Notes: generated by a model from the letters alone, not told the origin. 32,000 nucleotides of DNA from Marinicellulosiphila megalodicopiae (GCF_045862395.1 NZ_AP023087.1:4282450-4314449), one strand, 5' to 3'. Shown: positions 4,538 to 25,184, numbered from the stretch's first letter. Program-made: numbers and translations.

Positions 4538-7348
4538 TTATTCGCCTCTATAATGATCTAATGTAATTTTCAAAATACCACCACTTGCGCTGACTTGATT
4601 TGGACTAAATTTCGCATCGTTTTCACCAAAAGTCCAATTCGCTAGACTCCAACGGTTAGTATCAAGAGTATTAAAATCATCAGTCCACTGCAATACAAAA
4701 TTACCTGTGTTTTGATCAAGTGATGAGTATGACAAGTAATCTAATTCCATAGAAACTGGATACACAGAATCATCAATCGCTCCCACCCACTCTGCAATAT
4801 TTGCAGGCCAAAGGTTTAAACGTATTCCTTGCAGACTTGTTAAACTTGCGTATTGATCAACTGTCATATTTTCTTTTCCTGCTCTAGACAAAAATTGTCC
4901 ATCTAAGAAAAATTCAACACGATCTGGATACCAATCCATACGGTACAAATGAAAATCATCTGCTAAAGATTGTACTTGTGTATGCAGTGCATCACTTGTA
5001 ATACGCTCTGACGCTTTACCAGTAATAATATTCGTTTGTAAATCAACGGCATTATTTTTACCTAACACCTCCATATCAATTTCTTCCCAAGGCTCAGGAT
5101 CGACTTCACTGCCATTTTTGTAAGTAAAATAACCATTAACAATACCACTACCTTTTGCCGCTTTCATTCTTAATTCAATACTACCGTATAGATATAGATC
5201 TTCGGAGTAGATTTCGCCGGATGAATATAGCTTGTCATCGTTTAACGAATAATCAACTTCTTTAGGTGGCGTTACAATAACCGAACCGTCCGATTTTGAA
5301 ATTTCTAAATATTTAATTCTGATCGCTTCTTCTTTATATAGTTTTGGAAGATTTAAAGCAGCAAACTGATTATTATCACTTTGTTGTGTACCAGTTAAAT
5401 AATTACGGTAAGTATTTCGCGATTTTGTTTCAGCAACAAAACTCATGTCCGATGGAACCAAATCTTTTACATCATTAAAAGAAACAGTTTGTACACCCCA
5501 GTTTGCAACTTCTTCACGATAAATTAAACTGCTCACTGGCACGCTAACTCTTAGCCATTGATCATGGTAATCACGATCAATCGTTAAATTAATTGTGCCA
5601 TGAACATCACCTTGCGTCGCATAATCATCACCAGGAATAGGATCAACGCCGTCGTAGTTTAATTGGATATCTAAGTAAAATTCACCATCGTCAAATTCAT
5701 CAAGTTGCGCTGAGGTTAAACCACTATATGCACTGCGAACTTCTGTATTAGTTGGTAATACTGAGTTTGCAGAATCGATATAAATATCCATTGTGATCGT
5801 ACCTAAATCTGCAAACGATGCATTATCATTTGAAACTGGGAATTTAAATCCATTACCATGCTGTGAATCCCAATCTGTATATTTTTTCACTAGAATATTG
5901 TTGATTGATTGTGCACCGTTACAGTTAGCATTCGCGGTATAGCCTTTATCAATCACGTAGTCAGCCGTTGATTGAGCGATACCATCCCATTCTGTTGCAT
6001 TAGAATTCACATGACTCCAATCGTTATTGATGTTTGACATAGAGCCATCAACCAATAAATATCCGTCATGATCAATTACAGGATTTAAACCACATGTATT
6101 TATTGCATACAGTTTATGTTGAGCGCCTGCTGGAAGTGCAATTAACGAATAACTTTCATCTCCAGTTGTGACTGCAGCTTCTACTGTAATCATCACAGGT
6201 GTTTCAATTGTATTAATGCTATCTTTGACAGTAAACGTAGCAGTATACACACCTTCATTTACAATTGTGGTAGTTGCAGTTTCGCTATTAAATGCTTCAT
6301 CATTTATTAACCATGAATAGCTTAAATTTGCATCATCTGCATCGGTTGCTGTTCCAGAAACAGTAAATGACTGTCCTGCTGTAACTGTGTAACTTGAATT
6401 AACGCTCACAACGGGTGCCACATTTAATTCAACTAACACGCTGATTGTTTTTATAGTTGGCTGATTTATTGAATCATCTGCCGTTAACTCAACTAAAAAA
6501 GTTTGGCTTGGTTGAGTTAAAGAAAAAATATGAGTTGGATTTTCTAAAGTTGAATCTCCTCCATCTTTAAAATCCCAATAATAGGTTATGCCATCACTTT
6601 CAGGATCAGAGGCATTTGCCATAAAATCCACCGAAACGGTATCAATAGTTTTTACACCAATTTGAAATGAAGGATTAGCAACAGGCGGATAATTTACTCC
6701 AACTTGTTTAGCAGGTACTGTAACTTCAACCATTTTAGTAGCTTTATTATTATCAGTGTCTGTTACGCTTAGTTCGACATTATGCACTACTATTGAATCA
6801 CCTAATACATAGTCATGAATTGGGTTTTCTAAACTTGAATCATTACCATCTTTAAAGTCCCAAAAATAAGTTAATTGATCGCCATCTGCATCTGCAGCAT
6901 TTGCTGTAAACGTAGCAGAGCCAGTCGAGGAAATTTGAACAACCGGATCAAGTGTAGGTGTCCTATTTTCACTTGAAGTAACAGCAGGAACAAATACATT
7001 TACAATTTTAGATTTAAATTCTCCTTTACTGTCATACACAGTTAATTCAACTTCATAAGTTGCATCCTCATTCAATTCAGGAAATTTATGTTCAAATGAT
7101 GTTGCGCTTGATGATGTCGGTGAACCATCTTTAAAATTCCAGACATAAATTAAACTGTCGCCATCAGCATCGAATACTGTTGGGTTAAGTGTCACTGTAT
7201 TATTTACTGCTGTTGTTGTGTTAAAACTAACCACAGGGGCTGCGTTATCTTCAGTATTTGTATTATTTGATGTTGACTCAGGATCAACACAACCTACGCC
7301 TGCAAAAATTGCAATGCTGCTGGCCGCACAAAGCGCTTTAAAGTTCAT
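4538..7348 (-). CDS. Secreted or lipoprotein multi-domain glycoside hydrolase: 4 PKD-like repeats, an unassigned middle region and a C-terminal GH16 beta-glucanase (laminarinase-like) domain
   Basis: The N-terminal signal has a Cys (AIFAGVGC). The PKD-type motif recurs as YVWNFKDG, YFWDFKDG, YYWDFKDG and YSWLINDE. The GH16 catalytic motif EEIDMEVLG (ExDxE) is near the C-terminus. Confidence 0.9.
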   Translation of the reverse strand: MNFKALCAASSIAIFAGVGCVDPESTSNNTNTEDNAAPVVSFNTTTAVNNTVTLNPTVFDADGDSLIYVWNFKDGSPTSSSATSFEHKFPELNEDATYEVELTVYDSKGEFKSKIVNVFVPAVTSSENRTPTLDPVVQISSTGSATFTANAADADGDQLTYFWDFKDGNDSSLENPIHDYVLGDSIVVHNVELSVTDTDNNKATKMVEVTVPAKQVGVNYPPVANPSFQIGVKTIDTVSVDFMANASDPESDGITYYWDFKDGGDSTLENPTHIFSLTQPSQTFLVELTADDSINQPTIKTISVLVELNVAPVVSVNSSYTVTAGQSFTVSGTATDADDANLSYSWLINDEAFNSETATTTIVNEGVYTATFTVKDSINTIETPVMITVEAAVTTGDESYSLIALPAGAQHKLYAINTCGLNPVIDHDGYLLVDGSMSNINNDWSHVNSNATEWDGIAQSTADYVIDKGYTANANCNGAQSINNILVKKYTDWDSQHGNGFKFPVSNDNASFADLGTITMDIYIDSANSVLPTNTEVRSAYSGLTSAQLDEFDDGEFYLDIQLNYDGVDPIPGDDYATQGDVHGTINLTIDRDYHDQWLRVSVPVSSLIYREEVANWGVQTVSFNDVKDLVPSDMSFVAETKSRNTYRNYLTGTQQSDNNQFAALNLPKLYKEEAIRIKYLEISKSDGSVIVTPPKEVDYSLNDDKLYSSGEIYSEDLYLYGSIELRMKAAKGSGIVNGYFTYKNGSEVDPEPWEEIDMEVLGKNNAVDLQTNIITGKASERITSDALHTQVQSLADDFHLYRMDWYPDRVEFFLDGQFLSRAGKENMTVDQYASLTSLQGIRLNLWPANIAEWVGAIDDSVYPVSMELDYLSYSSLDQNTGNFVLQWTDDFNTLDTNRWSLANWTFGENDAKFSPNQVSASGGILKITLDHYRGE

Positions 7349-10922: not shown

Positions 10923-10990
10923 TATTCAACTATCAAATATTTAAGAACCAAAAATTAAATAACCAAAAATTAAAGAACCGAAAATTAAAA

Positions 10991-11020
10991 AGCCCAAACT
11001 TTAAAAGTCTGGGCTTTTTT
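10991..11020. terminator. Bidirectional rho-independent terminator between convergent genes
   Basis: Stem AGCCCAAAC / GTCTGGGCT with one mismatch and loop TTTAAAA, followed by T6. An A/T-rich run precedes it, serving the opposite strand. Confidence 0.6.
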
Positions 11021-11024
11021 GGGT

Positions 11025-11600
11025 TTATGGCCAATTACGAATAATAATTTCCTCTATTATTAAATTGGCTGATTGTTGTTTATATGTAGCCCTAATTTTA
11101 TCTTTAAGTTTATGTTTTGCTTGCAGATAGTATAATGAGTCTGCTTGTAATAATTGTTTTTGTAATTCATCCAACTGGTTATTCACGCTTTTTTTAGCCT
11201 CATCAAACATTCTTGCGTTTCGTTCATCGTTGGTTGCATCTAATTGTTTTTGTTCAATTAAGGTTGCCTCATGTTTGGTTAGCATTATCTCAGGTGCGTC
11301 CAAATAAATTGTATTGTTTTTATATTCGCTATTAAAATTCCAATCTTTTGCATCAACTGACATTTCAAACTCTAAACTCCATTTGTATTGAACAATGCCT
11401 TTTCCAAGGCCCAGCCCTTTAGTATCTTTAATCGTGTCATTAAATAAAATATCAAATTCAATCAGGTTAAGCGTTTGAATTTGATTAATAGTGTTTGGAT
11501 CAAAATATTTTGAACTGACTTGTTTGGGAATATTTGCACCGATGATCATGCCGATTTCAATAATTAAAATTAAAAATACAACTTTCAAAAAATTATTCAT
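11025..11600 (-). CDS. Hypothetical protein with an N-terminal membrane anchor
   Basis: 191-aa ORF with an N-terminal TM segment (VVFLILIIEIGMIIGA). It overlaps the upstream gene by 8 nt, so the two form an operon. Confidence 0.55.
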   Translation of the reverse strand: MNNFLKVVFLILIIEIGMIIGANIPKQVSSKYFDPNTINQIQTLNLIEFDILFNDTIKDTKGLGLGKGIVQYKWSLEFEMSVDAKDWNFNSEYKNNTIYLDAPEIMLTKHEATLIEQKQLDATNDERNARMFDEAKKSVNNQLDELQKQLLQADSLYYLQAKHKLKDKIRATYKQQSANLIIEEIIIRNWP

Positions 11601-12240
11601 GATCGTGATCCTTTGCTTCTAAACCTTGCTCTGTATCTTGAAGGCTTTGCTCATCTTTAGTGAATCGTTTTACTACAAAATACACAATGGTCGATACAAT
11701 CATTACCGCCACAACATACGAAGTTAATATTTCAAATGCAGACACTGTAAAATTCAAACCTTTTGAAGCACCTAATAAAACAGGAAAACCCCAAGACACT
11801 AATGACACAGACCCAATTAATGTCATGATTATTTTTTGCTTATGGGTAATTGAATAGAATAATGTTTTCCCTTCATTATTATTTAATATCGGCAAAATAA
11901 ATCGATGCAATAAATAGCCATTAAATGACAACACAACCACAATGCTCACCTTTGACCACACTTTTGGATTTAGGACATTTTCAGGTTCAAAAATAGAATA
12001 ATGAATGATAAACCCAAGACCCGTTACCCATAAGATACACAAACCAATCGTGACTAGATTTGTTAAAAAATGCACCAATTTTAATTTTTCACTGCTTATC
12101 GGTTCAAATTGCAAAAATCGGATAATGATTAAATCGGATATCCAAGCACCACCCGCTCCAAAAGCCAGCCCAATAAAATGAAAAATAATTAATAATGTTT
12201 TGATATCTAATGCTTCGAAAATATTCACTGTATTAACCAC
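11593..12240 (-). CDS. Hypothetical polytopic membrane protein
   Basis: 215-aa ORF with at least 5 hydrophobic helices and an acidic, His-rich C-terminal tail (EAKDHDHE). Confidence 0.6.
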   Translation of the reverse strand: MVNTVNIFEALDIKTLLIIFHFIGLAFGAGGAWISDLIIIRFLQFEPISSEKLKLVHFLTNLVTIGLCILWVTGLGFIIHYSIFEPENVLNPKVWSKVSIVVVLSFNGYLLHRFILPILNNNEGKTLFYSITHKQKIIMTLIGSVSLVSWGFPVLLGASKGLNFTVSAFEILTSYVVAVMIVSTIVYFVVKRFTKDEQSLQDTEQGLEAKDHDHE

Positions 12241-12355: not shown

Positions 12356-12387
12356 AAAAAAACGGATTAAGATCACTCTTAACCCGT
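12356..12387 (-). terminator. Rho-independent terminator downstream of the di-heme/P450 cluster
   Basis: On the minus strand: ACGGGTTAAGA-gtga-TCTTAATCCGT (11-bp stem, one mismatch) followed by T7. Confidence 0.55.
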
Positions 12388-12466
12388 CATTTAAAAATAA
12401 AATCCTTTTATTGCTTTCTCACCTTAAAGAAACTGTTTGACTCATTAAATAAATCAGGCGCTTATT

Positions 12467-14302
12467 CTACAACGTTTTTAGATACTCAAGCAATGCCCAA
12501 ACACTTTGTTTATCATCACTCCAATCTAATTTATAAGTTTTACCATCTAAAGTAATGTCTTTATCATGTCCTGCATTACTAATTGATGGAGAACTTTGGG
12601 TATCAAATACATACCCTTCTTGTTCATCCCAATTATCCAATTCCCACTTAAACCCTACTAATTGAGTGTCGAAATCTAATTGGCTTTTTACAAATACATC
12701 AGGACGCTCATTTGGCACTAGCATATGATAAAGCGTAGGCACTGAACCATTATGCAAATAAGGCGCTTGCGCCCAAAGCCCAGGAAACGGCAATGCGTTA
12801 TATCCATTTTGCACTCTTGGTGGCAACATGACCTGTTTACTTTGCCCAACTAACGAAACCCCTTTATATTCTGCACAAGGCTGAACTTGCTTTCCTTCCA
12901 TTTCAATGGTGGTAGTTGGAGAACAATTTGCGTCACCTGCAAAACTTGCTTGCGCGCCGACTGTAATCACAGTGCCTGCCACTTTTGCACGCCCCATATC
13001 AGTTCCCATAATCGAATATACACGACCATTATTTGGTTGATGACAATCCGCACAGTTATCTTTGAATAATTGCTGTCCTGTTTTTGCTAGATCCACATCA
13101 ACGTCAAATGGATAAATAGCAGGTGGTAGTTTTTGCAATACTTTTTCAGCATGGGCTGAAACACTGATATCAATATTATCAAATCCTAGTGTAATTTGAG
13201 CAGCAATGTTTTTATACATTGGTAACGGGATATGACCATTCCATTGACCGCCACCATTTATTAATCGTGTTTCATCTTCATTCCAAACTGGATCGTGAGA
13301 GTCTTGATCCCATACAACCATTATGTCTGTCACACCATGACTGGCTGGCATAACTAATGGTGCAATTAACTTAGTTGTCATCTTTTCATCAAAGGTTTGA
13401 AATGCTGTGGCCGCATTAAACCCAATGGCATCTTCCATGCCGGCGAATCCAGAATTAATTCTATCTTTAATATTTGGATACAGTTTTTCGGTTAATGTCA
13501 CCCAACTTGCATACACGTTTTCTTGGTGTGTCACAAATTCAGCGATAATATCTGTCGCATCATTTTTAAATAATTGAATTTGAGCTGCCTCATAATTTGC
13601 ATCAAATACTCTTCCGTCGTATTGATAATTATTGTAAAAATAATTTGGATCTTGAGCCTCTACTTTATCTAGCGCGGTTAAAAATGCATCCACTACTAAT
13701 TGTTTTTTGGCAGACTCGTCAGTTTCATTGCCATAAATTTTATTTAAAGATTGGACAATACGCTCCCGATAACCAATCACGTTAAATTCAGAATTGATAC
13801 CGCCATCTAAATATTCAAACTCACCACTTGGTAATCTAACTCGACCAATATGACACCCTCCACAGGTAAACGAGGCGTAATCAATATCTGCAGTTAAATC
13901 TTTTCTCACTAAACCAGTAAAGCCAATTCCACGTGGAAATGGATACCCTACTAAGCGCTCATCATGAAACAATCCCATAACCGATAAAAAATTATCTTCA
14001 TCACCCCAATATTCAGGTGCAACTTCAGGCAATAATTTTAAGACAATCAAGGGAATACCATTGGTTTCGCTCACTGGAAAGTTTGCAAAATGATCATAGT
14101 TTACTTGGAATGTATCAATATGATCGGCAATATCCGCACGACGCTTTGCTTGAGCAAGCACCCAATCTTTAGGTACTGGTTTTACATAAGTGGATTTAGG
14201 TGCTTCTAACCGACTATCAAATAAACCACTTACTTTACCGTAAGCGAGTAATCCAATAATAGGCAATACAACAGCCGAAATTTTAAACAGAGGGTGATTC
14301 AT
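12467..14302 (-). CDS. Di-heme cytochrome c peroxidase-like protein (large form, membrane-anchored or exported)
   Basis: Two CxxCH heme c motifs (FTCGGCHIGRV and NCADCHQP). The CCP/MauG-like distal motif is WAQAPYLHNGSVPTLYHML. It has an N-terminal hydrophobic anchor and ends EYLKTL. Confidence 0.8.
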   Translation of the reverse strand: MNHPLFKISAVVLPIIGLLAYGKVSGLFDSRLEAPKSTYVKPVPKDWVLAQAKRRADIADHIDTFQVNYDHFANFPVSETNGIPLIVLKLLPEVAPEYWGDEDNFLSVMGLFHDERLVGYPFPRGIGFTGLVRKDLTADIDYASFTCGGCHIGRVRLPSGEFEYLDGGINSEFNVIGYRERIVQSLNKIYGNETDESAKKQLVVDAFLTALDKVEAQDPNYFYNNYQYDGRVFDANYEAAQIQLFKNDATDIIAEFVTHQENVYASWVTLTEKLYPNIKDRINSGFAGMEDAIGFNAATAFQTFDEKMTTKLIAPLVMPASHGVTDIMVVWDQDSHDPVWNEDETRLINGGGQWNGHIPLPMYKNIAAQITLGFDNIDISVSAHAEKVLQKLPPAIYPFDVDVDLAKTGQQLFKDNCADCHQPNNGRVYSIMGTDMGRAKVAGTVITVGAQASFAGDANCSPTTTIEMEGKQVQPCAEYKGVSLVGQSKQVMLPPRVQNGYNALPFPGLWAQAPYLHNGSVPTLYHMLVPNERPDVFVKSQLDFDTQLVGFKWELDNWDEQEGYVFDTQSSPSISNAGHDKDITLDGKTYKLDWSDDKQSVWALLEYLKTL

Positions 14303-14312
14303 AATTTATACC

Positions 14313-16136
14313 TTAAAGTGTTTTTAAATATTCAATAATAGCCATTGCACCTGGCTTATCATCGGACCAATTTAATTTGTATTCAATACCATTTTCATTC
14401 ACATCTTGGTCGTGACCTTTATTTGAAAATGTTTCAAAACTTTTTGTATCAAAAACATAACTATGCTCTGCTGATACGGTTTGATGATTGTCTTGTACCC
14501 ACTGATAGCCTAAATATGTTTGATCATAGGTTAACTGACTTTTGATAAACGTAGTTGGTCGCTCATTAGGCACTAATAAATGATAAATAGTTGGCACCGA
14601 TCCGTTATGTAAATATGGAGCTTGAGCCCAAATTCCACTTAATGGTCTTGCGTTATAACCATGATGTTGATTATTAGGTGACATAATTAAATCTTCTTTT
14701 CCTTCTAAAGACACGCCACCAAATTGCGCACAGGGTTTCACTTGTTCACCATATAACTCAACCTTTGTTTGAGTAGAACATTCTTTAAAAAAACCACTGA
14801 TGCCGCCTTTTCTAATTAATGTATTTACAACATAACTACGGTCAAGATTCACACCAAGGTTACTATAAACCTTACCGTTAAATGGTTGATGACATTGCGC
14901 ACAGTTGTCTGCAAATAATGCTTCGCCTTTTTTAGCAAGTTCAACATTCACATCAAATGGATACACAGACGCAGGAAGTTTATCCAATAATTCGACAGAA
15001 AATGCAGACACTCTTAAATCATTATCATCTAAGCCAATTGTTAACTGTGCCGCCATATTACGATACATAGGAATAGGGATATTACCATTGTATTGCCCGC
15101 CACCATTAATTAACGTTTGATGAGAATTATCCCAATGCGCTTTTCTTTCATCTTGGCGCCATACAGTCATAAAATCCGTTATACCTGGAGAGCTCGGTAA
15201 AATGTGTTTGGAAAATAATTTTCCAAAAAAAGTCGAATGGGCATCATTATATGAATTAACTGTAAATATTCCGGTTGCATCTGCCATGCCGGGAAACCCT
15301 TCTAAAGAACGTGTCTGGAATCCCTTGTAATTTTTATCTAGTAACGCAGCATAACCGGTATAATCTTGCGTGGTAGTTTTATAAAAATCACCAATTAACG
15401 ATCCAGATTTCTCAATAAAAAGTTTAATTTGATTTTTTTCATATGCCAAATCAAAGTTAACTACATCATTTTTATATTCATTATAAAAGTAACTATCACT
15501 TACGGATATTGCTTTTTCAAGTGCTGTTAAAAATGCATTTTCTAGTAATTGTTGCTGTTTAATCGGATCAGATTCATCTCCTATTATTTTTTGAAGGGTT
15601 TGATAAGTTTTCACTCGATAAGCAACAATATTAAATTCAGTATTCACGCCGCCATCAATATAATGAATTTTATTATTTTGATCTATCACGCGCCCAATAT
15701 GACAAGCGCCACAAGTAAAGGATGTATAATCTATTTTGCCCATAGGCTCAATTCTAGCTAAGCCACTTATTCCTATACCACGAGCTATTGGATAATTTTC
15801 CTGCCTTGTATCTTTAAATAACCCTACGACATCTAAAAAGTTTTCTTCACTGCCCCATAATTCTGGTGCAATAATAGGTAATAATTTTAAAATAATGAAA
15901 GGTGTTCCATCTGTTTGGCTAAAAGCATAATCGGCAAACCAATCAAATGCTTCTTGATTATCTGCAATATATGATTCTTTTTGCTGTATTTTTTGTTGCT
16001 GAAATTCAGACCAATTTTGTGTAACAGGTATTACAAATGGTTTACCTGTTGGGGATGCTAATTGTTTTGTGGGAATTGCTTTATATATTGTGATGCCTAC
16101 CAATAAAAACATGGCAATTAATAATATTTTTTTCAT
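14313..16136 (-). CDS. Di-heme cytochrome c peroxidase-like protein, tandem paralog of 12467..14302
   Basis: FTCGACHIGRV, NCAQCHQP and WAQAPYLHNGSVPTIYHLL. It is collinear with the 611-aa neighbour along its whole length and ends EYLKTL. The gap to the next gene is 10 nt. Confidence 0.8.
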   Translation of the reverse strand: MKKILLIAMFLLVGITIYKAIPTKQLASPTGKPFVIPVTQNWSEFQQQKIQQKESYIADNQEAFDWFADYAFSQTDGTPFIILKLLPIIAPELWGSEENFLDVVGLFKDTRQENYPIARGIGISGLARIEPMGKIDYTSFTCGACHIGRVIDQNNKIHYIDGGVNTEFNIVAYRVKTYQTLQKIIGDESDPIKQQQLLENAFLTALEKAISVSDSYFYNEYKNDVVNFDLAYEKNQIKLFIEKSGSLIGDFYKTTTQDYTGYAALLDKNYKGFQTRSLEGFPGMADATGIFTVNSYNDAHSTFFGKLFSKHILPSSPGITDFMTVWRQDERKAHWDNSHQTLINGGGQYNGNIPIPMYRNMAAQLTIGLDDNDLRVSAFSVELLDKLPASVYPFDVNVELAKKGEALFADNCAQCHQPFNGKVYSNLGVNLDRSYVVNTLIRKGGISGFFKECSTQTKVELYGEQVKPCAQFGGVSLEGKEDLIMSPNNQHHGYNARPLSGIWAQAPYLHNGSVPTIYHLLVPNERPTTFIKSQLTYDQTYLGYQWVQDNHQTVSAEHSYVFDTKSFETFSNKGHDQDVNENGIEYKLNWSDDKPGAMAIIEYLKTL

Positions 16137-16164
16137 TTTATTTTTCTTATCGTTATTATTAAAT

Positions 16165-16190
16165 AAAAAAGCCTCTCATAAGAAAGGCTT
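16165..16190 (-). terminator. Hairpin plus T-run between the P450 gene and the downstream di-heme genes (possible internal terminator or attenuator)
   Basis: On the minus strand: AAGCCT-ttcttatgag-AGGCTT followed by TTTTAT. The stem is only 6 bp. Confidence 0.4.
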
Positions 16191-16202
16191 AATAGGGTTA
16201 TC

Positions 16203-17534
16203 CTATTTCCATTTTAATTTGTAATCTTCTGGGAAAGGCCCATCTTTATAATCCATCTCAGATGCAGATTGAATATCTTTTCGCATTAAAACCTGCTTTA
16301 CCATTTCAGGAATCATTGCCATTCCTATGTATTTACCCACACAGTCGTGAGATGCAAATCCATAGTTAAAATTATGATACCAATTACGATTTGCATTAAA
16401 TTCTTCAGGATTTTCATAAGAATAATCATCAAACATTGCAGACTGAGTTAACGTTAAAACATTGGTTCCTGATGGAATTTTTGTTTCACGATCCGTGCCT
16501 TTTGCTATGGTGTAATCCATTGATGTTTGACGAAATAGATATGGGCTAATCGGTACAAATCGTAAAGCCTCCCAGACCATCGCATCAATTTTATCTGTAT
16601 TAGAATCAAGAGATGCCGCTTTGGCTTGTTCAAATAATTCAGGACGTTCAATAAAAAAGTTAATCACTTGCGCAACGGCTTGTGAGGTAGTTTCTACGGC
16701 ACCAATTAATAAGCCACCAGCGTTTGTACCAATACGCGTTAATGGAAAATCAACTTGAGGAGCGAATGAGCTACGCAACATACGTTTTACAATATCATCT
16801 TTAAATTCATATGCTGGCTTTTTAGCGATGGCTCTAAATATATTTAAAACTTGTACAGCACGACCCAATAACCGATCTTTGATTTGTACCGTTAGAATTT
16901 TACGAATCATTAACACAGTAACATAATCGACTAATTCTTTAGAACACTGTGCATGAATGTCTACAATTTCATCAAATCGCTCTTTAGAATTTAAGTCAAA
17001 TGGCTGATTATGGAATGTATTATATTGATTCCAATATGACCATTTTAATAATTTTTTACGACTAATTCCGTCCAAACCAAAATATTCTTGAACTAATATC
17101 GCAGGAACCATACGACAATATTCATTTACAATTTCAATTTCTCCGTCGGCATCATCCAAAATTTTCTTAGATGAATCACGAATTAATTTTCTAATTCTTG
17201 GAATATCTTCGCGATTTAACATACCTTGCATAATTGATTTTTCACGATAATGTAGCGCATCATCATCGTGTGCCATTAAATATCCAGGTTCAGTATCAGT
17301 GACACCCATCTTTGGTTTATATAACGCGTTGGTAAAAATCGTCGGCATTTGTAATGCATCACGAACATCTGTAAATAATGCAAGTAACGTACATTCAGGC
17401 GTCACCAATACTGGACGTTCCTCTCGTAACTGTTTAAAAAATGGAAGCGGTTCATCATGCATCCATTTTTTCACTAATGGAAATTTGTCCGCATCAGCAG
17501 CGGCATCAAATAACTCAAGATAATTTGTAGTCAT
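16203..17534 (-). CDS. Cytochrome P450
   Basis: Heme-thiolate signature FGFASHDCVGKYIG (FxxGxxxCxG), I-helix AGGLLIGAVETTSQ, and K-helix EALRF (ExxR). There is no signal peptide. Its start lies 10 nt after the upstream stop. Confidence 0.9.
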   Translation of the reverse strand: MTTNYLELFDAAADADKFPLVKKWMHDEPLPFFKQLREERPVLVTPECTLLALFTDVRDALQMPTIFTNALYKPKMGVTDTEPGYLMAHDDDALHYREKSIMQGMLNREDIPRIRKLIRDSSKKILDDADGEIEIVNEYCRMVPAILVQEYFGLDGISRKKLLKWSYWNQYNTFHNQPFDLNSKERFDEIVDIHAQCSKELVDYVTVLMIRKILTVQIKDRLLGRAVQVLNIFRAIAKKPAYEFKDDIVKRMLRSSFAPQVDFPLTRIGTNAGGLLIGAVETTSQAVAQVINFFIERPELFEQAKAASLDSNTDKIDAMVWEALRFVPISPYLFRQTSMDYTIAKGTDRETKIPSGTNVLTLTQSAMFDDYSYENPEEFNANRNWYHNFNYGFASHDCVGKYIGMAMIPEMVKQVLMRKDIQSASEMDYKDGPFPEDYKLKWK

Positions 17535-17544
17535 GATTCACCCC

Positions 17545-19692
17545 TTATAATGTTTTCAAATATTCAATTAAATCCCAGCGCTCTTTTTCAGATAACGCAG
17601 GTAATACTTCACCATTGTTTTGAGCAGTTTTTCCAGCACCGTATTCGTGCCCTGTGTTCATGTCACCAACACGAGTGGTAATAAATGCACTGCCATCATA
17701 ATCTTTTGATTTAAATCCAACTCGATTAGCGTCAAACTCACGACTGCCAACTACAAATTCATCTGGTCGATATTCACCCTCAGCAGGATCAGTGTCTAGT
17801 TTTTTAGGTAATAATAAATCGTATAAAGTTGGAACCGAACCATTATGTAGATAAGGAGCAGTAGCCCAAATTCCATTTAAGGCACGACCTTTATAAGCCA
17901 ATAATGAACTGTATGGGTTAGAAGTTGTATCAGCAACATAATTACCTTTTTTAACGGTTTCTGGCATTTTATTTTCAAAAAATGAAGACCCCAAAACATA
18001 CAAACGATCTAACCAACGACGTATAAAGAACTTATCAGGGTCGGGTGTTGCAATCACTCCTTTTGTTGCAGAAGTTAATATTTGCAATACAGGTGCGTCC
18101 TCACTAATAAATACATCACCAACTCCTGTTATAGATTGAACAGTGTGCTGAAAATTACCAGATTTACCTGTTGCCATCACACCATTTATAGCAGCTGCTT
18201 TATCAGTACCGACTAAGTTTATATCCATCATATTTGCGATGATGATTCTGTCCGCATTATTTCGATCGACCACTTCGTGACATGATTGACAGTATTGAGC
18301 ATAAACTAGCTGTCCACGTTCTGCTTTAACTTGATCGATTTCACCTAATATTTCTTGTGGCCAAACTGGTGACTGCAAGCGTTTAAGTTGAGCTTCTAAA
18401 CGGCGTAAATTTGTGACATCGATTGAAGATTTAAAATTAACTACTTCGTTTTTATTTTTTTGATCGGTTATTAAAGTAGATAATTCAAATCCATTAGGCT
18501 CATGTGATGTCCAATCTAAAATGCCAAACACACCAATCACTTCTCCGGTATTACGACCAAGCGGCCCAACACCTGCATTATTTGCTACACCATTCCACTG
18601 AGTATAATCTGCCTGTCCTATATCCCATAAAAATGGATAGCTCACTGGAGCATTTGGTTCATTAAAAATACTATTACGTACTCGTAATAAATCACGTTGA
18701 TTTAAACCTGGGTATCCTGGTTCTGTAGATGCTAATCGATCAAGTACCAATCCAAACTGTTTATCCACAATAATATTTTCATTTACGCCTTCAAGTACTA
18801 AATCGATTTGATCACGAGTTAAAACTCTACGACGTTCGCCGTTAGTTCCTGGTGCCGTGACCATTTCCATGGTATTGGCCAACTGCTGTTTGTTAATCAT
18901 ATGCTGTAATACACGGTTATAAATTCGTCCAAATGCATCTAGGCGACCATAACCATAATCGATATGACTGTGGTTTACTGTATTGTATAAACTGATTGTT
19001 TTTAGCCATTGCTCAGTTGACTCAATAACTTTAGCTTCTTTTTTAAAGTCATTATTACGTGCTAAAACAGTTTCAACATAACGTGTTTTTTTAGCTTCAT
19101 CTGCTAACGTGGCACGCATTGATTTTTCAATTGCAGTTAAAAAGCCAACCATATCGGCCATTGCTGGACCGCCATCAATACGAATTGCCGATGTGATACC
19201 ATCTTTTGTGAAATTAACTTGGTTAGTATGACAAGCAGCACAGGTGTAACCGATGTAGTCATTTCCCTGATATGTATCTTTAACTAAACCTACTGGTAAA
19301 CCATCTGGGTTTAAGAATGTTTCTTTTTGCGGTAAATACCGATACTTATCAATATTGTGGTTGTCACGTAACAATTTATTTGAATTTTCTTGCTCTAATG
19401 ACATAAATAAATCATATGGCATTAATGCTGAACCTTGAGTGGTATTATAAAACCAAAGGCTTTCTGCTTCTGTCCAACCTTGATCTAAATATACAGGGGT
19501 TGTAAAACTTTCCCCAAATTCACCATTTTCAAGTGCAATTGCACCTCGGTCGGGATCATCATCCCAGTTTTGGTAGGTTTTACCTGCAATTAATGCGATC
19601 ACCATTAATAAAATAATGACACCAACAATGCGCCCTGAGTATTTCAATAGGTAAAAAATTGCTGCGAAAATGGATTGGAAAAATGTAGCCAT
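17545..19692 (-). CDS. Di-heme cytochrome c peroxidase-like protein (715 aa, divergent member of the same family)
   Basis: YTCAACHTNQV, YCQSCHEV and GIWATAPYLHNGSVPTLYDLL. It has an N-terminal TM region (VGVIILLMVIALIAG) and ends EYLKTL like the other two. Confidence 0.8.
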   Translation of the reverse strand: MATFFQSIFAAIFYLLKYSGRIVGVIILLMVIALIAGKTYQNWDDDPDRGAIALENGEFGESFTTPVYLDQGWTEAESLWFYNTTQGSALMPYDLFMSLEQENSNKLLRDNHNIDKYRYLPQKETFLNPDGLPVGLVKDTYQGNDYIGYTCAACHTNQVNFTKDGITSAIRIDGGPAMADMVGFLTAIEKSMRATLADEAKKTRYVETVLARNNDFKKEAKVIESTEQWLKTISLYNTVNHSHIDYGYGRLDAFGRIYNRVLQHMINKQQLANTMEMVTAPGTNGERRRVLTRDQIDLVLEGVNENIIVDKQFGLVLDRLASTEPGYPGLNQRDLLRVRNSIFNEPNAPVSYPFLWDIGQADYTQWNGVANNAGVGPLGRNTGEVIGVFGILDWTSHEPNGFELSTLITDQKNKNEVVNFKSSIDVTNLRRLEAQLKRLQSPVWPQEILGEIDQVKAERGQLVYAQYCQSCHEVVDRNNADRIIIANMMDINLVGTDKAAAINGVMATGKSGNFQHTVQSITGVGDVFISEDAPVLQILTSATKGVIATPDPDKFFIRRWLDRLYVLGSSFFENKMPETVKKGNYVADTTSNPYSSLLAYKGRALNGIWATAPYLHNGSVPTLYDLLLPKKLDTDPAEGEYRPDEFVVGSREFDANRVGFKSKDYDGSAFITTRVGDMNTGHEYGAGKTAQNNGEVLPALSEKERWDLIEYLKTL

Positions 19693-20373
19693 ATCAATAT
19701 CCCTGTCATGCTTACCTGCACGAATTTATTGTTATTGTTTTAAGAAAGTCACTAGGTCTCGGACTTTGTTTGCGGTTCTACTGGCACCAGCGCTTTACTT
19801 TTACCAAGCAGATTAATAAATATACAAGCCGTATAATTATTTAGCTAAAATAACCGATTAGGCTTCTGAAATCTAGCACTTTTTGAATGGCGTTAAATAG
19901 AAAGGGGGATACTTAAAATCATTAATAAACTCAATCTATTCAGCTCAAATGTTGATCAAATATAAAGCATATAACAATTTAGTTACTTCATAGTTTTAAG
20001 ATCATATAATTTATCAACCACTGTAATCACCCGCATTAAATCATCCGTTTTAAACTCTATATATAGATAAGTATCCACATATCGTAATGTTTTGAAATTA
20101 ATTCCATTACTCACTCTACTTTGATAGTAATCAAATAACAGGATAACAGGCCTTTATTTTTAAATTTCATTCATGTGTAAACTTCAATTATTTCTAAATT
20201 TTCATTACCTATCCAAAAAAATATATGCAATTAATACATTCTCCTAATATCTTAAAATGCTTGATTGAGCTAAAAGATACAAAACTTTATTAGAATAAAG
20301 TGCATTAAATGATTGTTTCATATTAGAACCACAACTAACTAAATTCAAAAAAGCTCAATTGTGGATATCTGTT

Positions 20374-20606
20374 TTTACAAACATACAAATAAAAGTGACC
20401 AACAAAATATTCAACATCGGACGCGACGGATTTGATGCAGGTCAAGATGCGTTTTCTTTTGGTATTAGTGCAAAACAATATGTGTCGATGGCACTTGTTT
20501 AAAAGCAACAACTACTCGTGATTTGACGGACATAGTTGGATTAGGTTGTTTGATTAAACTGGAAGGTGGCGGACGCAATGTTCGGTATCAGTTAAGTTTG
20601 GATTAG
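20374..20606 (+). pseudogene. C-terminal fragment of a Fic-family-type protein (winged-helix tail), frameshifted
   Basis: Hand translation gives ...NIQIKVTNKIFNIGRDGFDAGQDAFSFGISAKQYVSMALV* (stop at 20500-20502). In another frame it continues KATTTRDLTDIVGLGCLIKLEGGGRNVRYQLSLD*. This xxTAxRDLxxLxxxGxLxxxGxGRxxxY pattern is typical of Fic protein C-termini. There is no start codon and no Fic core. Confidence 0.5.
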
Positions 20607-21034
20607 GTTTGATTTGGTTTAGTGGATTTGATTTAGTAAATAAAGTTTTATTAGAAAAGTATTGTGAAGCAAGCGATTTGACCTAGAATCGAATCTCTTT
20701 TTTGTAGGTCGTATGCTTTCACACAGGGATGTGTGCAAGGGGCGTGAGCATGCTTAAAGGGATTTAAGTAGTAGAGCAATGTCTGGAACTAATTGCCGAG
20801 AACGCGGTAGCTTTGCTGCGAAAAACTAATCAGGGTTTTTGAGTGTCCATACCACACTAGTGACCCAAGCCCGAGCAGGTTTGTTTTGCGGATTTTAGAT
20901 GACAGATGGGCGCGCGACCCTTTGGCTCTTAATTATATAATGTATAATGGCGTTTATGAAAACAGCTAACTTATATTTTTATGTAATATGTTTTAAATGC
21001 ATATTGCATTACCACACCAAAATAAGAATTAATA

Positions 21035-21711
21035 ATGAGTAAGAAAAAAGATAAAAACGCCCGAAAAAAATAGTTCAAAAAAAAGCACTAAAACAAAAAA
21101 ATAAATCCATTTCGTTTCAAGCAAGTCAGGCTGTAAAAGAGAAAACAGCCGTTGAAAAATTAAATTACCGCATCACCGAGGATCCATTTTCAGTATCAAC
21201 GAAACAAACACTACCCGAAGAAATAGAAAAAAGGAAACAATATCTTTTTGATAACTTAGAAGAGCGCCCAGAAGATTTAATAGAAGAGCTCGAACTTTTA
21301 GTGACTCAATATCCTCAAAATAATATCCTCTCGAACTTTCTTTCTAATGCCTATCTATTAACTAAACAAATGGAAAAACATGAAGCATTATCAGAAAAGA
21401 CTTTTTCAGAGTGTCCAGAATACCTATATGGACGTGTTCATTGGGCAAAAATATTAATGGATCGCAACGATTACAAACAAGCCAATGAAGTATTTAACAA
21501 TACATGGGATTTAAAGAAACTGTACCCACAACGTAAAGTATTTCACATAACAGAGGTACTAGCATTTTATAGTACAGCTATTACCTACCATGAAAATATG
21601 CAAGAAGAGAGTGAATTTTTATTTGCCTTTGATGTATTAAGAGAGCTTGATGTTGAAGAAGATATATTATTACAATATTCCCCATCAGTTATGAAATGGC
21701 GTTTTCTTTGA
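21035..21711 (+). pseudogene. Hypothetical helical-repeat protein interrupted by a frameshift at an A7 tract (intact 3' ORF is 21301..21711)
   Basis: ATG 21035 reads MSKKKDKNARKK then TAG (21071-21073). The frame that contains the track ORF is open from 21055 and reads ...PKKIVQKKALKQKNKSISFQ... An A8 run instead of A7 (21064-21070) would fuse the two into one ORF of about 225 aa. Confidence 0.45.
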
Positions 21712-21846
21712 TGTGTGTTTAGTCGATAAATAGAAGGCTTTTATCTTTAAAGGGTCGGTTGTTTCGTAATACTTTTTGAGTGTCTATGTCAAAATAAAGG
21801 CCTGACCCCAAGGACTCCAGCACAGTCAGCTATTATATTTAACTTA

Positions 21847-22089
21847 AAACCAAGAAAAATTAGTTTCAAACATTGCCTGCAAGTATGGCTGTCATATACA
21901 CAATCAAATCGGCAGCCTGATGATCATATATTTAAATTAATATCAAAACGGCAAGTAGGTAATCGACCCGGAAGAATAGAGCCAAGAGCGATTAAACGAA
22001 GGCCAAAACCTTATAAATTATTGACCGTTACACGCGAAGTTGCAAGAGAGGATATTAGAAGAAATGGCCACCCAAAGAAACAGAAATAG
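21847..22089 (+). pseudogene. IS4-family-type DDE transposase, C-terminal fragment only
   Basis: The open frame has no start codon: ...KISFKHCLQVWLSYTQSNRQPDDHIFKLISKRQVGNRPGRIEPRAIKRRPKPYKLLTVTREVAREDIRRNGHPKKQK*. The VGNRPGRxEPRAxKRRPKxY tail is what I recall from IS4-group transposases. Confidence 0.55.
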
Positions 22090-22188
22090 TACTTTATTAA
22101 AAGACTTTATCTCTTAACTTAGTGCCATTCAACTCTGACCCTCTTGATTTTTTTACTCATTCATAGCGAAATATCAGAATTCAATAGT

Positions 22189-23907
22189 TTATCCAAACGC
22201 TTCACCAAATAACCAATTAATAGGGTCTTTATCATACAACTCTAATATTACATTATTTTGAATGTATTGTTTTTCTTCTTTATTTAAAATATTTAATTTA
22301 TTGTCTTTGTCAAGAATCTCATCCAATGTGGATTGCCCCAAATTCACAAAATATTGTAATTCACTGCTTTTTATAATTTCAATAATAACTTTAAATATCA
22401 TTGATTTTTGTCTAGGGTCCATCTCGGAAAAAATACAACCATCATGTGCAATAAAACTTAGTAAGCTGGGATTTAATTGATAAAGAAGTAGATCGTAGCA
22501 GAAAATTTTAACCTCATTAATCCCTTGTGATCCATCTCGTGGAATTTGAGCATCAATATTAAACAAATATTTTGCGTCGTTGGTTTCACTTATCTCTAAT
22601 GAACCTCCGTGGTTTAAATAAAACTTCTTAACCAGTGCCCTGAACATATTCTCAATTGTCTCAAGAAAAATTTTAGAATCAACTAGATATTTTACAGCTT
22701 CAGCTTTTATATTTGCATTTTCCAAATCATATTGGCTTTTATCTTCTTTAAAACTTTGTAAAATCTGGCGATATTTATCCAACTCGCCAATTTCACTTTC
22801 AAAACTTCTTATTCTTTCGTTAATTGAGTTGTATTCTTCTAGCGCCCCTTTTGAATCTAGATCTTTTAAAATAGAATCTCTAATTCGCTCATTGTCTTTT
22901 AAATTAACATTCAAAGTATTCAATTGATCTTCTAATTCTAGTATTTCAGAATTAATTCTACTAGCTCTATTTTTTAATAAATTTTTATGGAAATCTGTAG
23001 CCTGATCTAATCGAATAGAGATTTTATCCCCAAAGAAAAACGATGCTTCTTCATAAATCTTCTTCACTTTTACAAGATCTATTTCTTTTACCCCCGCTTC
23101 ATCAAGGCTTTGTTTTTTCCGCCCCATACTTTTAATTACTTCATATATTTCATTTCTAATTTTGTTTATAATTTCAGTTTTAGCGTCAGCTTCTCTTTTA
23201 TATTTATCATAATTTTCAGCTATCACAAAATCTTGTTTATTCTTAATTAAAGTCTTTAACTCATCCTTTAAGTCATTTATATTACTCTCCCCTAACAAGC
23301 TTTCATAATTTTCTATAACACTTTTAGCTTTTTTTAACTTATTTAATTTTTCTTTTACAATTGATTTCTTAGTTACTAGATTAGTATTAATGCCTAGTAA
23401 TGCTAAGTTGGTATACATTTGATGATAATCTTGCTCTGGTCTACCTTGCTGGGCAATTATACTAGAATAGTAAGTCCCGCCATATCGCCTAGCAAATACA
23501 TTTAATATCTGCTTAAAGCTAACACCATTATAAAGCTCATTTTTAATGAATATTTTTTTAAGTTCAGATGGGTAATTTGATTTAACTATTTTTTCACCGT
23601 TTAAAATATGGTGTGATTGGCCGAAGTCTTTTTCAACCTTATAAGGCTTACCTTCATGCTCAAATTCTAAATAAAAAACACCATAACCAGAAAGGAAATT
23701 TTGAATTTTTTTCTCTGTAGGTTTCGTTGGGTCAAGATACGAGCCAAGCATTAAATGAATTAAGTTAAGTGAAAAACTTTTCCCTACTCCATTATATGTT
23801 TTTTTATCGGCACTCGTAAGTTGCAATCCTGCCAATATATTAAGTCCGCTTTCAAATTTTAACGTCTTAAATTTAGAATTATTAGAACTTAATTTTAATA
23901 ATTTCAT
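22189..23907 (-). CDS. Coiled-coil ABC/SMC-like ATPase (DUF2326/YydD-like); ATPase component of an ABC-3C-type system
   Basis: Walker A is TYNGVGKSFSL. A charged, heptad-rich insert of about 200 aa follows. The C-terminus has signature-like GSQGINEVKIF, Walker B-like LLSFIAHD, and DPRQ. It overlaps the upstream gene by 26 nt. Confidence 0.8.
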   Translation of the reverse strand: MKLLKLSSNNSKFKTLKFESGLNILAGLQLTSADKKTYNGVGKSFSLNLIHLMLGSYLDPTKPTEKKIQNFLSGYGVFYLEFEHEGKPYKVEKDFGQSHHILNGEKIVKSNYPSELKKIFIKNELYNGVSFKQILNVFARRYGGTYYSSIIAQQGRPEQDYHQMYTNLALLGINTNLVTKKSIVKEKLNKLKKAKSVIENYESLLGESNINDLKDELKTLIKNKQDFVIAENYDKYKREADAKTEIINKIRNEIYEVIKSMGRKKQSLDEAGVKEIDLVKVKKIYEEASFFFGDKISIRLDQATDFHKNLLKNRASRINSEILELEDQLNTLNVNLKDNERIRDSILKDLDSKGALEEYNSINERIRSFESEIGELDKYRQILQSFKEDKSQYDLENANIKAEAVKYLVDSKIFLETIENMFRALVKKFYLNHGGSLEISETNDAKYLFNIDAQIPRDGSQGINEVKIFCYDLLLYQLNPSLLSFIAHDGCIFSEMDPRQKSMIFKVIIEIIKSSELQYFVNLGQSTLDEILDKDNKLNILNKEEKQYIQNNVILELYDKDPINWLFGEAFG

Positions 23908-24115
23908 CTTGCACCTCCAATTTACCGATTATGTACAAATAATTTATACAATGTATTATTGTTTCAATGCTTATCTTTTTTGGGTAAGTTTTTAATAGCT
24001 CTGAATGAATACAATCAACAGTGAAATCTTTATGCTTTGCCAAATCTATAATGTATGAAGAAATACAAAATAAAGAATCTATTGGCTGTATGGATTTATT
24101 TGGAAGTATCATCAA
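23882..24115 (-). CDS. Small middle-component protein of the three-gene system
   Basis: 77-aa ORF whose ends overlap both neighbours (20 nt and 26 nt). Its size and position match the ABC-3C middle component. I recognise no motif. Confidence 0.6.
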   Translation of the reverse strand: MMILPNKSIQPIDSLFCISSYIIDLAKHKDFTVDCIHSELLKTYPKKISIETIIHCINYLYIIGKLEVQDEIIKIKF

Positions 24116-25109
24116 TTTTCACTCCCACTTCGCATATTTCAAAAAAATATGATATTAATATCCAAGAGATAATCATGCTATTAAAGTCTTTTACGTCCAT
24201 TAGGCTTTCAAGAGCGTTATTAAGTCTAATTATTATTTTATTGAAGTCTAAATTATACTCAGAAGCTTTGACGTGTAATTGCGTTACGCTAATTCTATTT
24301 AAAATACTTTTAGCCTCTTTACTGCTGAGCATTTCCACTAATATATTTTTATATAAATCTCCAATTACAAATTCTTGTAAATCGCTAGCTAAGTTGCCGT
24401 CATCAATCCCTTTTATAATAGTGGTATAATCTAAGCTTTTTTTAATTTCAAACGAAATTCTCTCATTTAATTTGTTTAGCTTAATTTTAGGATCAACTTC
24501 TATTGAGTTAAAGTCTTCATCATATGATGGTTGCGGTAAGTTATTTTTTGCTTTTAAAAGCTTTTTATATGTTAGGTTTAACACTATATGGTCAGTGTAT
24601 TTATCAGATTTATTCCTGAAGTATAATTCGCATAAATTTACCAGTCTATTTGTTTCTAAATTTTCTATAGATTTTATTAAATCACTCGAGTCATTTAATA
24701 TACTAATTAAATCTAGTTTATAAACTTCAAGTATAGAGTCTATTGTCTCTTTTTTTGGTCTGGATTTTTCTAATAAATAGTATATTGAAATATTATAGTC
24801 TTTATATTTTTTATCAGATAATGCCTTAAGAGAGTGAAGTATTTTTTCTTTAGACCTAGTCGTTGTGACTTGAATAAGCTCTTTTTTGGTAGTATCTATT
24901 AAGTCAATATATGGGGCATTATTGCACCCAAAATTTGCATTTTCGAACTTCCTGTCAAAAACCAAATTAAAAACATCTCTAAAATAATTTTCACCATGAA
25001 TATTTAAGCACTGATCATTTACAAATTGATGATGCTCAATATCTAGCCTAGTAATAGCCAGAATCCTGCTGATTGTATTAAAGGCCTCAATTCTATCCTG
25101 CACCATCAT
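24096..25109 (-). CDS. SMEK-like N-terminal domain protein with a helical C-terminal domain; putative effector component
   Basis: The N-terminal pattern LNIHGENYFRDVFNLVF...NNAPYIDLID...KELIQVTTTRS matches my recollection of the SMEK domain consensus (INIHAENFYRDLLN...AIDL.D....IAIQVTS). It is first in the operon. Confidence 0.65.
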   Translation of the reverse strand: MMVQDRIEAFNTISRILAITRLDIEHHQFVNDQCLNIHGENYFRDVFNLVFDRKFENANFGCNNAPYIDLIDTTKKELIQVTTTRSKEKILHSLKALSDKKYKDYNISIYYLLEKSRPKKETIDSILEVYKLDLISILNDSSDLIKSIENLETNRLVNLCELYFRNKSDKYTDHIVLNLTYKKLLKAKNNLPQPSYDEDFNSIEVDPKIKLNKLNERISFEIKKSLDYTTIIKGIDDGNLASDLQEFVIGDLYKNILVEMLSSKEAKSILNRISVTQLHVKASEYNLDFNKIIIRLNNALESLMDVKDFNSMIISWILISYFFEICEVGVKIDDTSK

Positions 25110-25138
25110 TTAATCACTCTTTCATTTTTATGGTTTCT

Positions 25139-25171
25139 AAATTAAAGCCATTTTAAAAACAGCTTTAATTT
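25139..25171 (-). terminator. Weak hairpin downstream of ilvD
   Basis: 10-bp perfect but AT-rich stem AAATTAAAGC / GCTTTAATTT with a 13-nt loop. No clean T-run follows on the minus strand. Confidence 0.3.
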
Positions 25172-25184
25172 AACTGTAAAGCTA

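Follow-up and report, generated by a model that had tools for sequence, protein, structure and literature searches.

To our knowledge, only two kinds of reaction are known for the RoxA-like superfamily of large di-haem cytochromes c, namely the cleavage of rubber and the dioxygenation of oleate with diol synthesis. Here we describe a four-gene cluster of Marinicellulosiphila megalodicopiae in which three proteins of this superfamily are encoded together with a cytochrome P450 (P450). It lies on the minus strand, at positions 12,467 to 19,692 of a 32,000-nucleotide (nt) stretch of DNA (GCF_045862395.1, NZ_AP023087.1:4282450-4314449) that is called the window throughout. The cluster is a real, conserved and modular combination of known protein kinds, found described nowhere in the literature searched; full-text searches returned no description of a P450 paired with a RoxA-like protein. 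One of the large proteins, here called type A, forms a core unit with the P450, and the other two, the type B proteins B1 and B2, are optional add-ons. We tentatively read the cluster as a modular accessory oxidation system that works in two compartments on a hydrophobic substrate, a reading to which we give slightly less than an even chance.

The best solved fold match of both types is RoxA of Steroidobacter cummioxidans 35Y (PDB 4B2N). RoxA and the proteins described here have in common a mass of about 65-75 kDa, twice that of the bacterial cytochrome c peroxidases (bCCP), two CxxCH sites, a PY[LF]HNGSVP motif, a GH[DE] at the position of RoxA H641 and an EY[LI]KTL end. They are only 17-21% identical in structure alignments, however, and type A carries about 100 extra residues; RoxA is secreted and lacks a P450 partner, whereas the proteins here are membrane-tethered, and their hosts are not known rubber degraders. 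The classical di-haem peroxidases, with MauG, MbnH and BthA, have the same two-domain di-haem c core (Z 7-11) and likewise a MauG-type motif, but are about half the size and match the fold less well than RoxA does. The C-terminal haem ligand is Met in bCCP and Tyr in MauG.

A second described system is the FadCcp group of Pseudomonas aeruginosa, which is defined by PA2077 (oleate 10S-dioxygenase), PA2078 (7,10-diol synthase) and their P. aeruginosa orthologs, and which showed very low similarity to other proteins when it was described in 2015 (PMC4496055). These proteins belong to the same superfamily and size class, are periplasmic and likewise have a C-terminal Leu. They form a tandem paralog pair in one operon, 43% identical where B1 and B2 are 46% identical, but the P. 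aeruginosa operon has no P450. The logic of a haem dioxygenase with a dedicated P450 and no co-encoded redox partner is met again in the eukaryotic oxylipin cascades, that is, the fungal dioxygenase-P450 fusions (DOX-CYP) with linoleate diol synthase (LDS), allene oxide synthase (AOS) or epoxyalcohol synthase (EAS) activity, lipoxygenase (LOX) with CYP74, and cyclooxygenase (COX) with CYP5A/8A (PMC13049297). Their oxygenases, in contrast, have a peroxidase-cyclooxygenase or lipoxygenase fold unrelated to di-haem c, and their activities are fused or placed in one compartment, whereas here they lie on opposite sides of a membrane; at the position of the I-helix Thr, moreover, most of their P450s carry Asn or a non-polar residue, where the window P450 reads E-T-T.

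The four open reading frames (ORFs) run in one direction on the minus strand and encode, in order, proteins of 715, 443, 607 and 611 amino acids (aa), with gaps of 10, 66 and 10 nt; order, direction and gaps agree with the first-pass annotation of this DNA. The type A gene (17545..19692) was assigned through NF040606, PF21419, an AlphaFold2 (AF2) model and its place in a P450-linked clade. The P450 gene (16203..17534; PF00067) starts 10 nt past the type A stop codon. B1 (14313..16136), a protein with an N-terminal signal or anchor, was recognised by PF21419 and a RoxA-like AF2 model, and its paralog B2 (12467..14302) by PF21419 and its identity to B1.

Type A and the P450 are inherited together across Gammaproteobacteria, Gallionella and Acidobacteriota. 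A scan with the P450 as query, limited to one genome per species, gave 28 loci (L005-L032), all of them thus ascertained through the P450 itself. Type A adjoins the P450 in 23 of them, usually just upstream, and tail-to-tail in L016 and L024-L030 (Bryobacterales and an uncultured gammaproteobacterial group). Three loci have no type A neighbour: two from Cellvibrio metagenome-assembled genomes (MAGs; L017, L018), where the P450 is directly followed by a B2-type gene and no type A occurs in the 9 kb upstream, and one from a Nitrospirota MAG, with the P450 alone (L022). A further two are uninformative, L019 being a contig of only 3.6 kb and L032 ending within the P450. Since the Cellvibrio loci show the order P450-B2, the P450 can also travel with type B alone.

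Unbiased evidence of linkage comes from a sample of 400 genomes, even across the class, that was searched with NF040606. The P450 was found at E <= 1e-60 in six of these genomes and a full-length NF040606 member in 19, the window genome included; eight of the 19 have an adjacent P450. The P450 stands beside type A in G072, G269, G275, G343 and G125, and at a contig end in G332. No P450 was seen around 11 NF040606 loci (10 of the other 11 genomes) and around the second copy of the window genome, in flanks viewed up to about 6 kb that were cut by contig ends in L036 and L051. In the tree, the P450-linked type A proteins are one clade (Shimodaira-Hasegawa-like approximate likelihood ratio test, SH-aLRT, 93), with 29 of its 30 rows P450-adjacent; the sole exception is G307, where the P450 is on a separate 3.6-kb contig. 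All-against-all clustering of the ORFs around the pair revealed neither a third conserved gene nor a redox partner.

Three loci deserve separate mention. The second NF040606 member of the window genome (L046, G000:C1:3626575-3628110) is a 553-aa ORF with a score of 481 bits, has no P450 within 6 kb and is placed outside the P450-linked clade. At L045 (G111:C132, 1531-5085) the gene of a 738-aa type A-like protein precedes that of a 418-aa P450, which is only 31% identical to the P450 of the window; either this pairing branched off early from that of the window, or it arose independently. On a contig labelled as a Polaribacter MAG (L014), the type A protein is 65% identical to that of the window and sister to the copy of Endobugula (Cellvibrionaceae, L007), and the P450 is 74% identical to that of the window. 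This contig may be mis-binned rather than reflect a transfer into Bacteroidota.

The first-pass annotation had placed all three large proteins and the P450 in one candidate pathway. It is the 715-aa type that is linked to the P450, while the type B genes are optional. The commonest architecture is type A-P450, as in Thalassolituus oleivorans; A-P450-B2 occurs in L005 and L013, and P450-B2 in Cellvibrio. The synteny check proposed with the earlier annotation gave the complete order A-P450-B1-B2 in at least four genomes besides that of the window (loci L002, L003, L008, L010), all with unrelated flanks, and because it is conserved in other genomes this four-gene arrangement is far beyond chance. 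B1-like proteins are also found solitary, in Nitrosomonas and other settings. Distribution of the module is patchy: it was found in one of 24 other genomes of the window's own family, that one of the same genus; elsewhere in the order, three of 16 genomes outside this family have it, as do about 2% of the class sample. The module is therefore accessory and laterally mobile rather than housekeeping.

The boundary between core and add-ons can also be seen in the DNA. Between the P450 and B1 genes, the 66-nt gap contains a hairpin that resembles a terminator and has a U-run (16169..16190, minus strand; pattern scan; RNA fold -18.4 kcal/mol, z = -4.3), and comparable hairpins with U-runs trail the P450 in L005 and, in weaker form, in L008. 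The hairpin is likely a boundary or attenuation point between the type A-P450 pair and the type B genes. Because such hairpins follow the P450 in the window and these loci, the pair is probably its own transcription unit, with termination or attenuation ahead of B1-B2. A second terminator-like hairpin with a U-run follows the last gene, as had been annotated (12361..12388, minus strand; 12 pairs then TTTTTAT by pattern scan, with the sequence also read directly). By eye, no shared operator was recognisable in the 200-300 nt upstream of type A in 17 loci, which showed only lineage-specific similarity.

The traits that the first-pass annotation listed for the three large proteins are all present, since each contains exactly two CxxCH sites and a single CCP/MauG-like motif (APYLHNGSVPT[LI]Y), begins with an N-terminal hydrophobic segment and ends in EYLKTL. 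By sequence comparison they are nevertheless members of two deeply separated subfamilies of the RoxA-like di-haem superfamily, the 715-aa protein being only about 20-24% identical to the other two. In type A the haem sites are CAACH151 and CQSCH468, with further motifs APYLHNGSVPTLY612 and GHE681; B1 has CGACH142, CAQCH412 and GHD574, and its MauG-type motif ends in PTIY instead of PTLY; B2 has CGGCH147 and CADCH417. All three exceed the cut-off of PF21419 (RoxA-like; 26.7 bits), with 59.5, 71.4 and 61.7 bits for the 715-, 607- and 611-aa proteins. Type A is a full member of NF040606 ('di-heme-cytochrome C peroxidase'), as it covers all 524 positions of the model (1-524) at 573.6 bits, where the cut-off is 150, whereas B1 (126.8 bits) and B2 (121.6 bits) fall below it and match mainly in the C-terminal part.

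B1 and B2 are 46% identical over 601 residues. Type A and B1 are 24% identical by BLASTP in the C-terminal part only, and profile-profile comparison extends the homology of the two types to 499 columns, with 20% identity. In the tree, the branch between the types measures 4.8 changes per site, and B1 and B2 form distinct clades. A kinship with DUF1111 proteins was ruled out, as the Pfam scan gave no match. The superfamily comprises 3,307 clusters at 50% identity (E <= 0.001), and EYLKTL or a close variant is the C-terminus of most of its 150 best representatives; since most of these, and RoxA with EYIKTL, end in this way, the hexapeptide is a superfamily hallmark and not specific to the cluster. 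Tandem pairs of RoxA-like genes, each encoding about 500 aa, occur commonly in the class sample (G195:C24:19437-21335, G114:C4, G176:C5, G140:C30, G315:C12, G307:C106), so that tandem duplication looks like a general habit of the superfamily; in G195 one 1084-aa frame contains two RoxA-like copies.

An exhaustive fold search with VIA-align over 48,161 solved chains placed RoxA (4b2n) first for both types, with Z 13.3 over 383 residues for the type A AF2 model (predicted local distance difference test, pLDDT, 74) and Z 17.0 over 408 residues for the B1 model (pLDDT 89). Foldseek against the PDB gave only chance-level matches for the type A model and missed RoxA. In profile searches of the PDB, the C-terminal RoxA segment '...GGHDFTQSLTDSERWALIEYIKTL' (GGH(641)D) aligns to GHE681 of type A and GHD574 of type B, and the His of this GH[DE] is invariant in the homolog alignments of both types. 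H611 of PA2077, the distal ligand of the C-terminal haem, maps to RoxA H641 (PMC4496055). Because GHE and GHD align on RoxA H641, the counterpart of this ligand, the C-terminal haem is likely bis-His as in RoxA.

With a polyisoprene-cleaving dioxygenase as the closest solved structure of both types and the bis-His ligand conserved, a RoxA-like cleavage of polyenes or isoprenoids (carotenoids, squalene, phytol, polyprenols or algal alkenes) has to be considered, with the P450 oxidising the fragments for beta-oxidation. Several hosts are marine degraders of polysaccharides or hydrocarbons (Paraglaciecola, Algibacillus, Thalassolituus), and the glycoside hydrolase genes of the window (GH16 and GH3, see below) fit such a habit. 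However, the RoxA, RoxB and RoxC equivalog models (NF050033, NF050034, NF051462) score only 40-48 bits, in the motif region alone, against cut-offs of 900-1000; the enzymes here are tethered where RoxA is secreted, and genes for beta-oxidation or aldehyde dehydrogenase are not consistently linked. We consider this explanation rather improbable.

The next structural matches, at Z 5.5-11.4, are bCCP, YhjA, MauG, MbnH, BthA and the gamma subunit of hydrazine synthase. Their rank, with Z 7-11 for the group in the fold searches, would suit di-haem proteins of peroxidase- or MauG-like function, engaged in peroxide detoxification, the modification of periplasmic proteins or the conversion of small nitrogen or oxygen species, with a P450 linked for reasons of regulation or stress. 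It would also suit the frequency of type B homologs in Nitrosomonas, Mariprofundaceae and other lithotrophs, one of them encoded between NasT/NrtABC and NirB genes. Yet in both fold searches the peroxidases rank clearly below RoxA, the ligand that is kept is the His of RoxA and not the Met of bCCP or the Tyr of MauG, no gene for a substrate protein is conserved beside the pair, and the tight co-inheritance of the P450 is hard to explain without shared chemistry. We give this alternative, too, a small probability. On a contig from Mariprofundaceae (L053, 3928-10595), two RoxA-like genes (638 and 608 aa) transcribed in divergent directions were seen beside two FAD_binding_3 monooxygenase genes.

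The P450 is, judged from its sequence, a divergent family dedicated to its type A partner. As annotated, its motifs are intact (I-helix GAVETTS, ExxR as EALR, Cys loop FASHDCVG), its N-terminus is not hydrophobic and it has no signal peptide. PF00067 scores 51.5 bits against a cut-off of 22.8; the assignment to a named family that the first-pass annotation called for was not reached, with no NCBIfam P450 family near its cut-off (best TIGR04538, 59 bits against 500). The best PDB match has E = 4e-14, and an atlas look-up returned unnamed P450 clusters only. Identity within the family is 45-79%, with 64% for the copy in Bryobacterales (Acidobacteriota), and E281, T282, T283, E322 and R325 of ExxR, and C398 are invariant across 17 homologs.

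An acid-alcohol pair (E-T) in the I-helix is a signature of P450s that activate O2 and need electrons. The P450s that rearrange hydroperoxides in oxylipin pathways (CYP74, CYP8A, fungal LDS/EAS) mostly have Asn or a non-polar residue at the Thr position, a rule that is not absolute in view of 8R- and 9R-AOS, which keep Thr (PMC13049297). This feature is absent from the window P450, whose E281-T282-T283 is invariant in the 17 homologs. Because of the invariant pair E281-T282, the enzyme is probably a conventional O2-activating monooxygenase served by general redox partners. The suggestion that it might rearrange an oxygen function thus lost ground, E281-T282 being typical of O2-activating, partner-dependent P450s. 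The reported lack of a ferredoxin or reductase gene in the window was borne out by Pfam among the ORFs scanned, which were most, not all, of those of at least 80 aa.

These results bear on the idea that the large proteins are fatty-acid dioxygenases and diol synthases of the FadCcp kind, with a P450 that rearranges their hydroperoxides in an oxylipin-signal pathway. Dioxygenase-P450 pairing is the rule in eukaryotic oxylipin pathways (PMC13049297), the pairing of a maker and a consumer of toxic hydroperoxide is documented for PA2077/78, the B1-B2 tandem resembles that pair in identity (46% and 43%), and size class, two CxxCH sites, MauG-type motif and RoxA fold are held in common. On the other hand, the fingerprint of PA2077/78 (CAGCH at H130, CAACH at H375/H365, PYFH553/PYFH543), with kinship judged by published motif positions, is absent from the 150 best 50%-identity representatives of B1, down to E = 1.6e-20. 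The His residues of the two haem sites are 270 positions apart in type B and 317 in type A, and the motif His follows that of haem 2 after 95 and 144 positions, respectively; the published positions of PA2077 yield 245 and 178. Almost no FadCcp homologs exist outside P. aeruginosa according to the 2015 paper (PMC4496055). The P450, moreover, is cytoplasmic and retains the acid-alcohol pair where hydroperoxide-converting P450s usually have Asn or a non-polar residue, and it is linked to type A and not to the PA2077/78-like tandem pair. The kinship with PA2077/78 suggested in the first-pass annotation therefore holds in the wider sense of oversized di-haem proteins of the RoxA and PA2077/78 kind (PF21419, RoxA fold), while membership of the FadCcp clade can only be called putative, and we regard a FadCcp-type pathway as unlikely.

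Type A has one strong transmembrane segment at residues 19-37, with K17 and R21 near it, and the corresponding helix of the AF2 model spans residues 2-41; with this N-terminal anchor, the bulk of the protein should lie in the periplasm. In type B homologs, a lipobox-like GC is found near the N-terminus in many cases and a Cys453/Cys469 pair (B1 numbering) is nearly invariant (>=90%), both of which are consistent with export. None of the 17 aligned P450s has a signal peptide. The first-pass annotation had raised as a caveat that exported di-haem proteins and a cytoplasmic P450 occupy different compartments. The split is real and kept in the aligned homologs, and because the type A anchor, the type B export marks and the unexported P450s recur there, it is a conserved design feature and not an artefact.

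In the two-compartment oxidation system that we tentatively prefer, the core is a type A protein anchored in the inner membrane, its bulk probably periplasmic, together with a cytoplasmic P450; in the window and at least four other genomes this core is extended by two RoxA-like paralogs of type B, which probably make up a second transcription unit. Judging from the fold and the haem ligands, the di-haem enzymes would act with their N-terminal haem, on the outer side of the membrane, to oxygenate a hydrophobic substrate. If RoxA and PA2077 are taken as a guide, the most likely target would be a C=C bond in a fatty acyl, alkenyl or isoprenoid chain. The I-helix suggests that the most likely task of the P450 is to hydroxylate or epoxidise, from the cytoplasmic side, this molecule or the product formed from it, and its electrons would come from a general ferredoxin and reductase encoded elsewhere.

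A more specific version would liken type A and the P450 to the dioxygenase-P450 oxylipin cascades of eukaryotes, of which they would be a bacterial counterpart with its two parts on either side of the inner membrane. Unsaturated lipids of the cell itself, of a host or of algae would be peroxidised or cleaved in the periplasm, the P450 would turn the products into a signal or a usable metabolite, and the type B pair would add a step like that of PA2077/78, with a dioxygenase and a consumer of hydroperoxides. This version is speculative, and the chance we allow it is low, if somewhat better than that of the FadCcp-type pathway.

In independent lineages the pair has lipid-related genes as direct neighbours. 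A GDSL lipase gene lies immediately upstream in L049, L020 has genes for a Zn phospholipase C and a PhoD-like phosphatase, L011 for GlpK and GlpD, and L002 for FadB, FadA and a short-chain dehydrogenase/reductase; an EEP-family gene is found in L022. They give a weak and anecdotal hint at a hydrophobic, unsaturated lipid as substrate. Several observations weigh against the proposed lipid oxidation. Most neighbourhoods of the pair consist of plain housekeeping genes, and type B relatives are common in Nitrosomonas and iron oxidisers, a poor fit to lipid catabolism. A nitrate-assimilation cluster encloses the type B homolog of L052 (6001-7851), which is 53% identical to B1, with NirB, a major facilitator superfamily (MFS) transporter and a kinase/PP2C gene on one side and NrtABC-like genes and a NasT-like ANTAR regulator on the other. 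The counterparts of F301 and F317, which belong to the distal pocket of the N-terminal haem in RoxA, are left unaligned by HMMER, and loop 367-379 of the type A model is of low confidence. Finally, the proposed substrate class is drawn by analogy from distant relatives, RoxA being only 17-21% identical in structure alignments. A role with nitrogen oxides was considered and not adopted, its support being the single nas-cluster locus and the taxonomy of the nitrifiers.

Directly upstream of type A, in the window stretch 19693-25184, 1.6 kb contain no ORF of at least 60 aa. Past this gap follow a 136-aa ORF with no family match, a DUF2326 protein (572 aa) and a SMEK-domain protein (337 aa), which may form a defence-type three-gene set in an AT-rich stretch (27-29% GC). 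The position of the DUF2326 and SMEK genes 2.5-5.4 kb upstream of the cluster, and in L003 that of a type I restriction subunit at a distance of 2.8 kb, could suggest that the type A-P450 pair serves defence or cell-death systems as an accessory oxidative arm. In the approximately 20 lineages inspected, however, the genes next to the pair are mostly of a housekeeping or catabolic kind, and the island of the window is set off from the cluster by the ORF-free 1.6 kb, so that such a role appears very improbable.

On the other side of the cluster, at 11025-12240 on the minus strand, a 215-aa ORF with several hydrophobic segments and a 191-aa ORF with an N-terminal anchor overlap by 8 nt and are followed by a strong terminator at 11019..10987. 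Neither ORF matched a Pfam or NCBIfam family, and neither is kept beside the cluster in other genomes. Farther away, a 936-aa protein with four PKD domains and a GH16 catalytic domain (4538-7348, minus strand) and a GH3 gene (29614-31554) are encoded, and therefore a marine polysaccharide-degrading lifestyle is indicated.

For the RoxA-like superfamily, the P450-locked di-haem subfamily is a concrete two-gene unit in which a third kind of reaction may be sought, and it is present in culturable marine bacteria, among them Paraglaciecola algarum, Algibacillus agarilyticus and Thalassolituus oleivorans. Any mechanism will have to account for the consistent split across the membrane and for the lack of a co-encoded redox partner. 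If the substrate is indeed an unsaturated lipid, the pair would represent a widespread bacterial route of oxylipin formation or lipid oxidation beyond P. aeruginosa.

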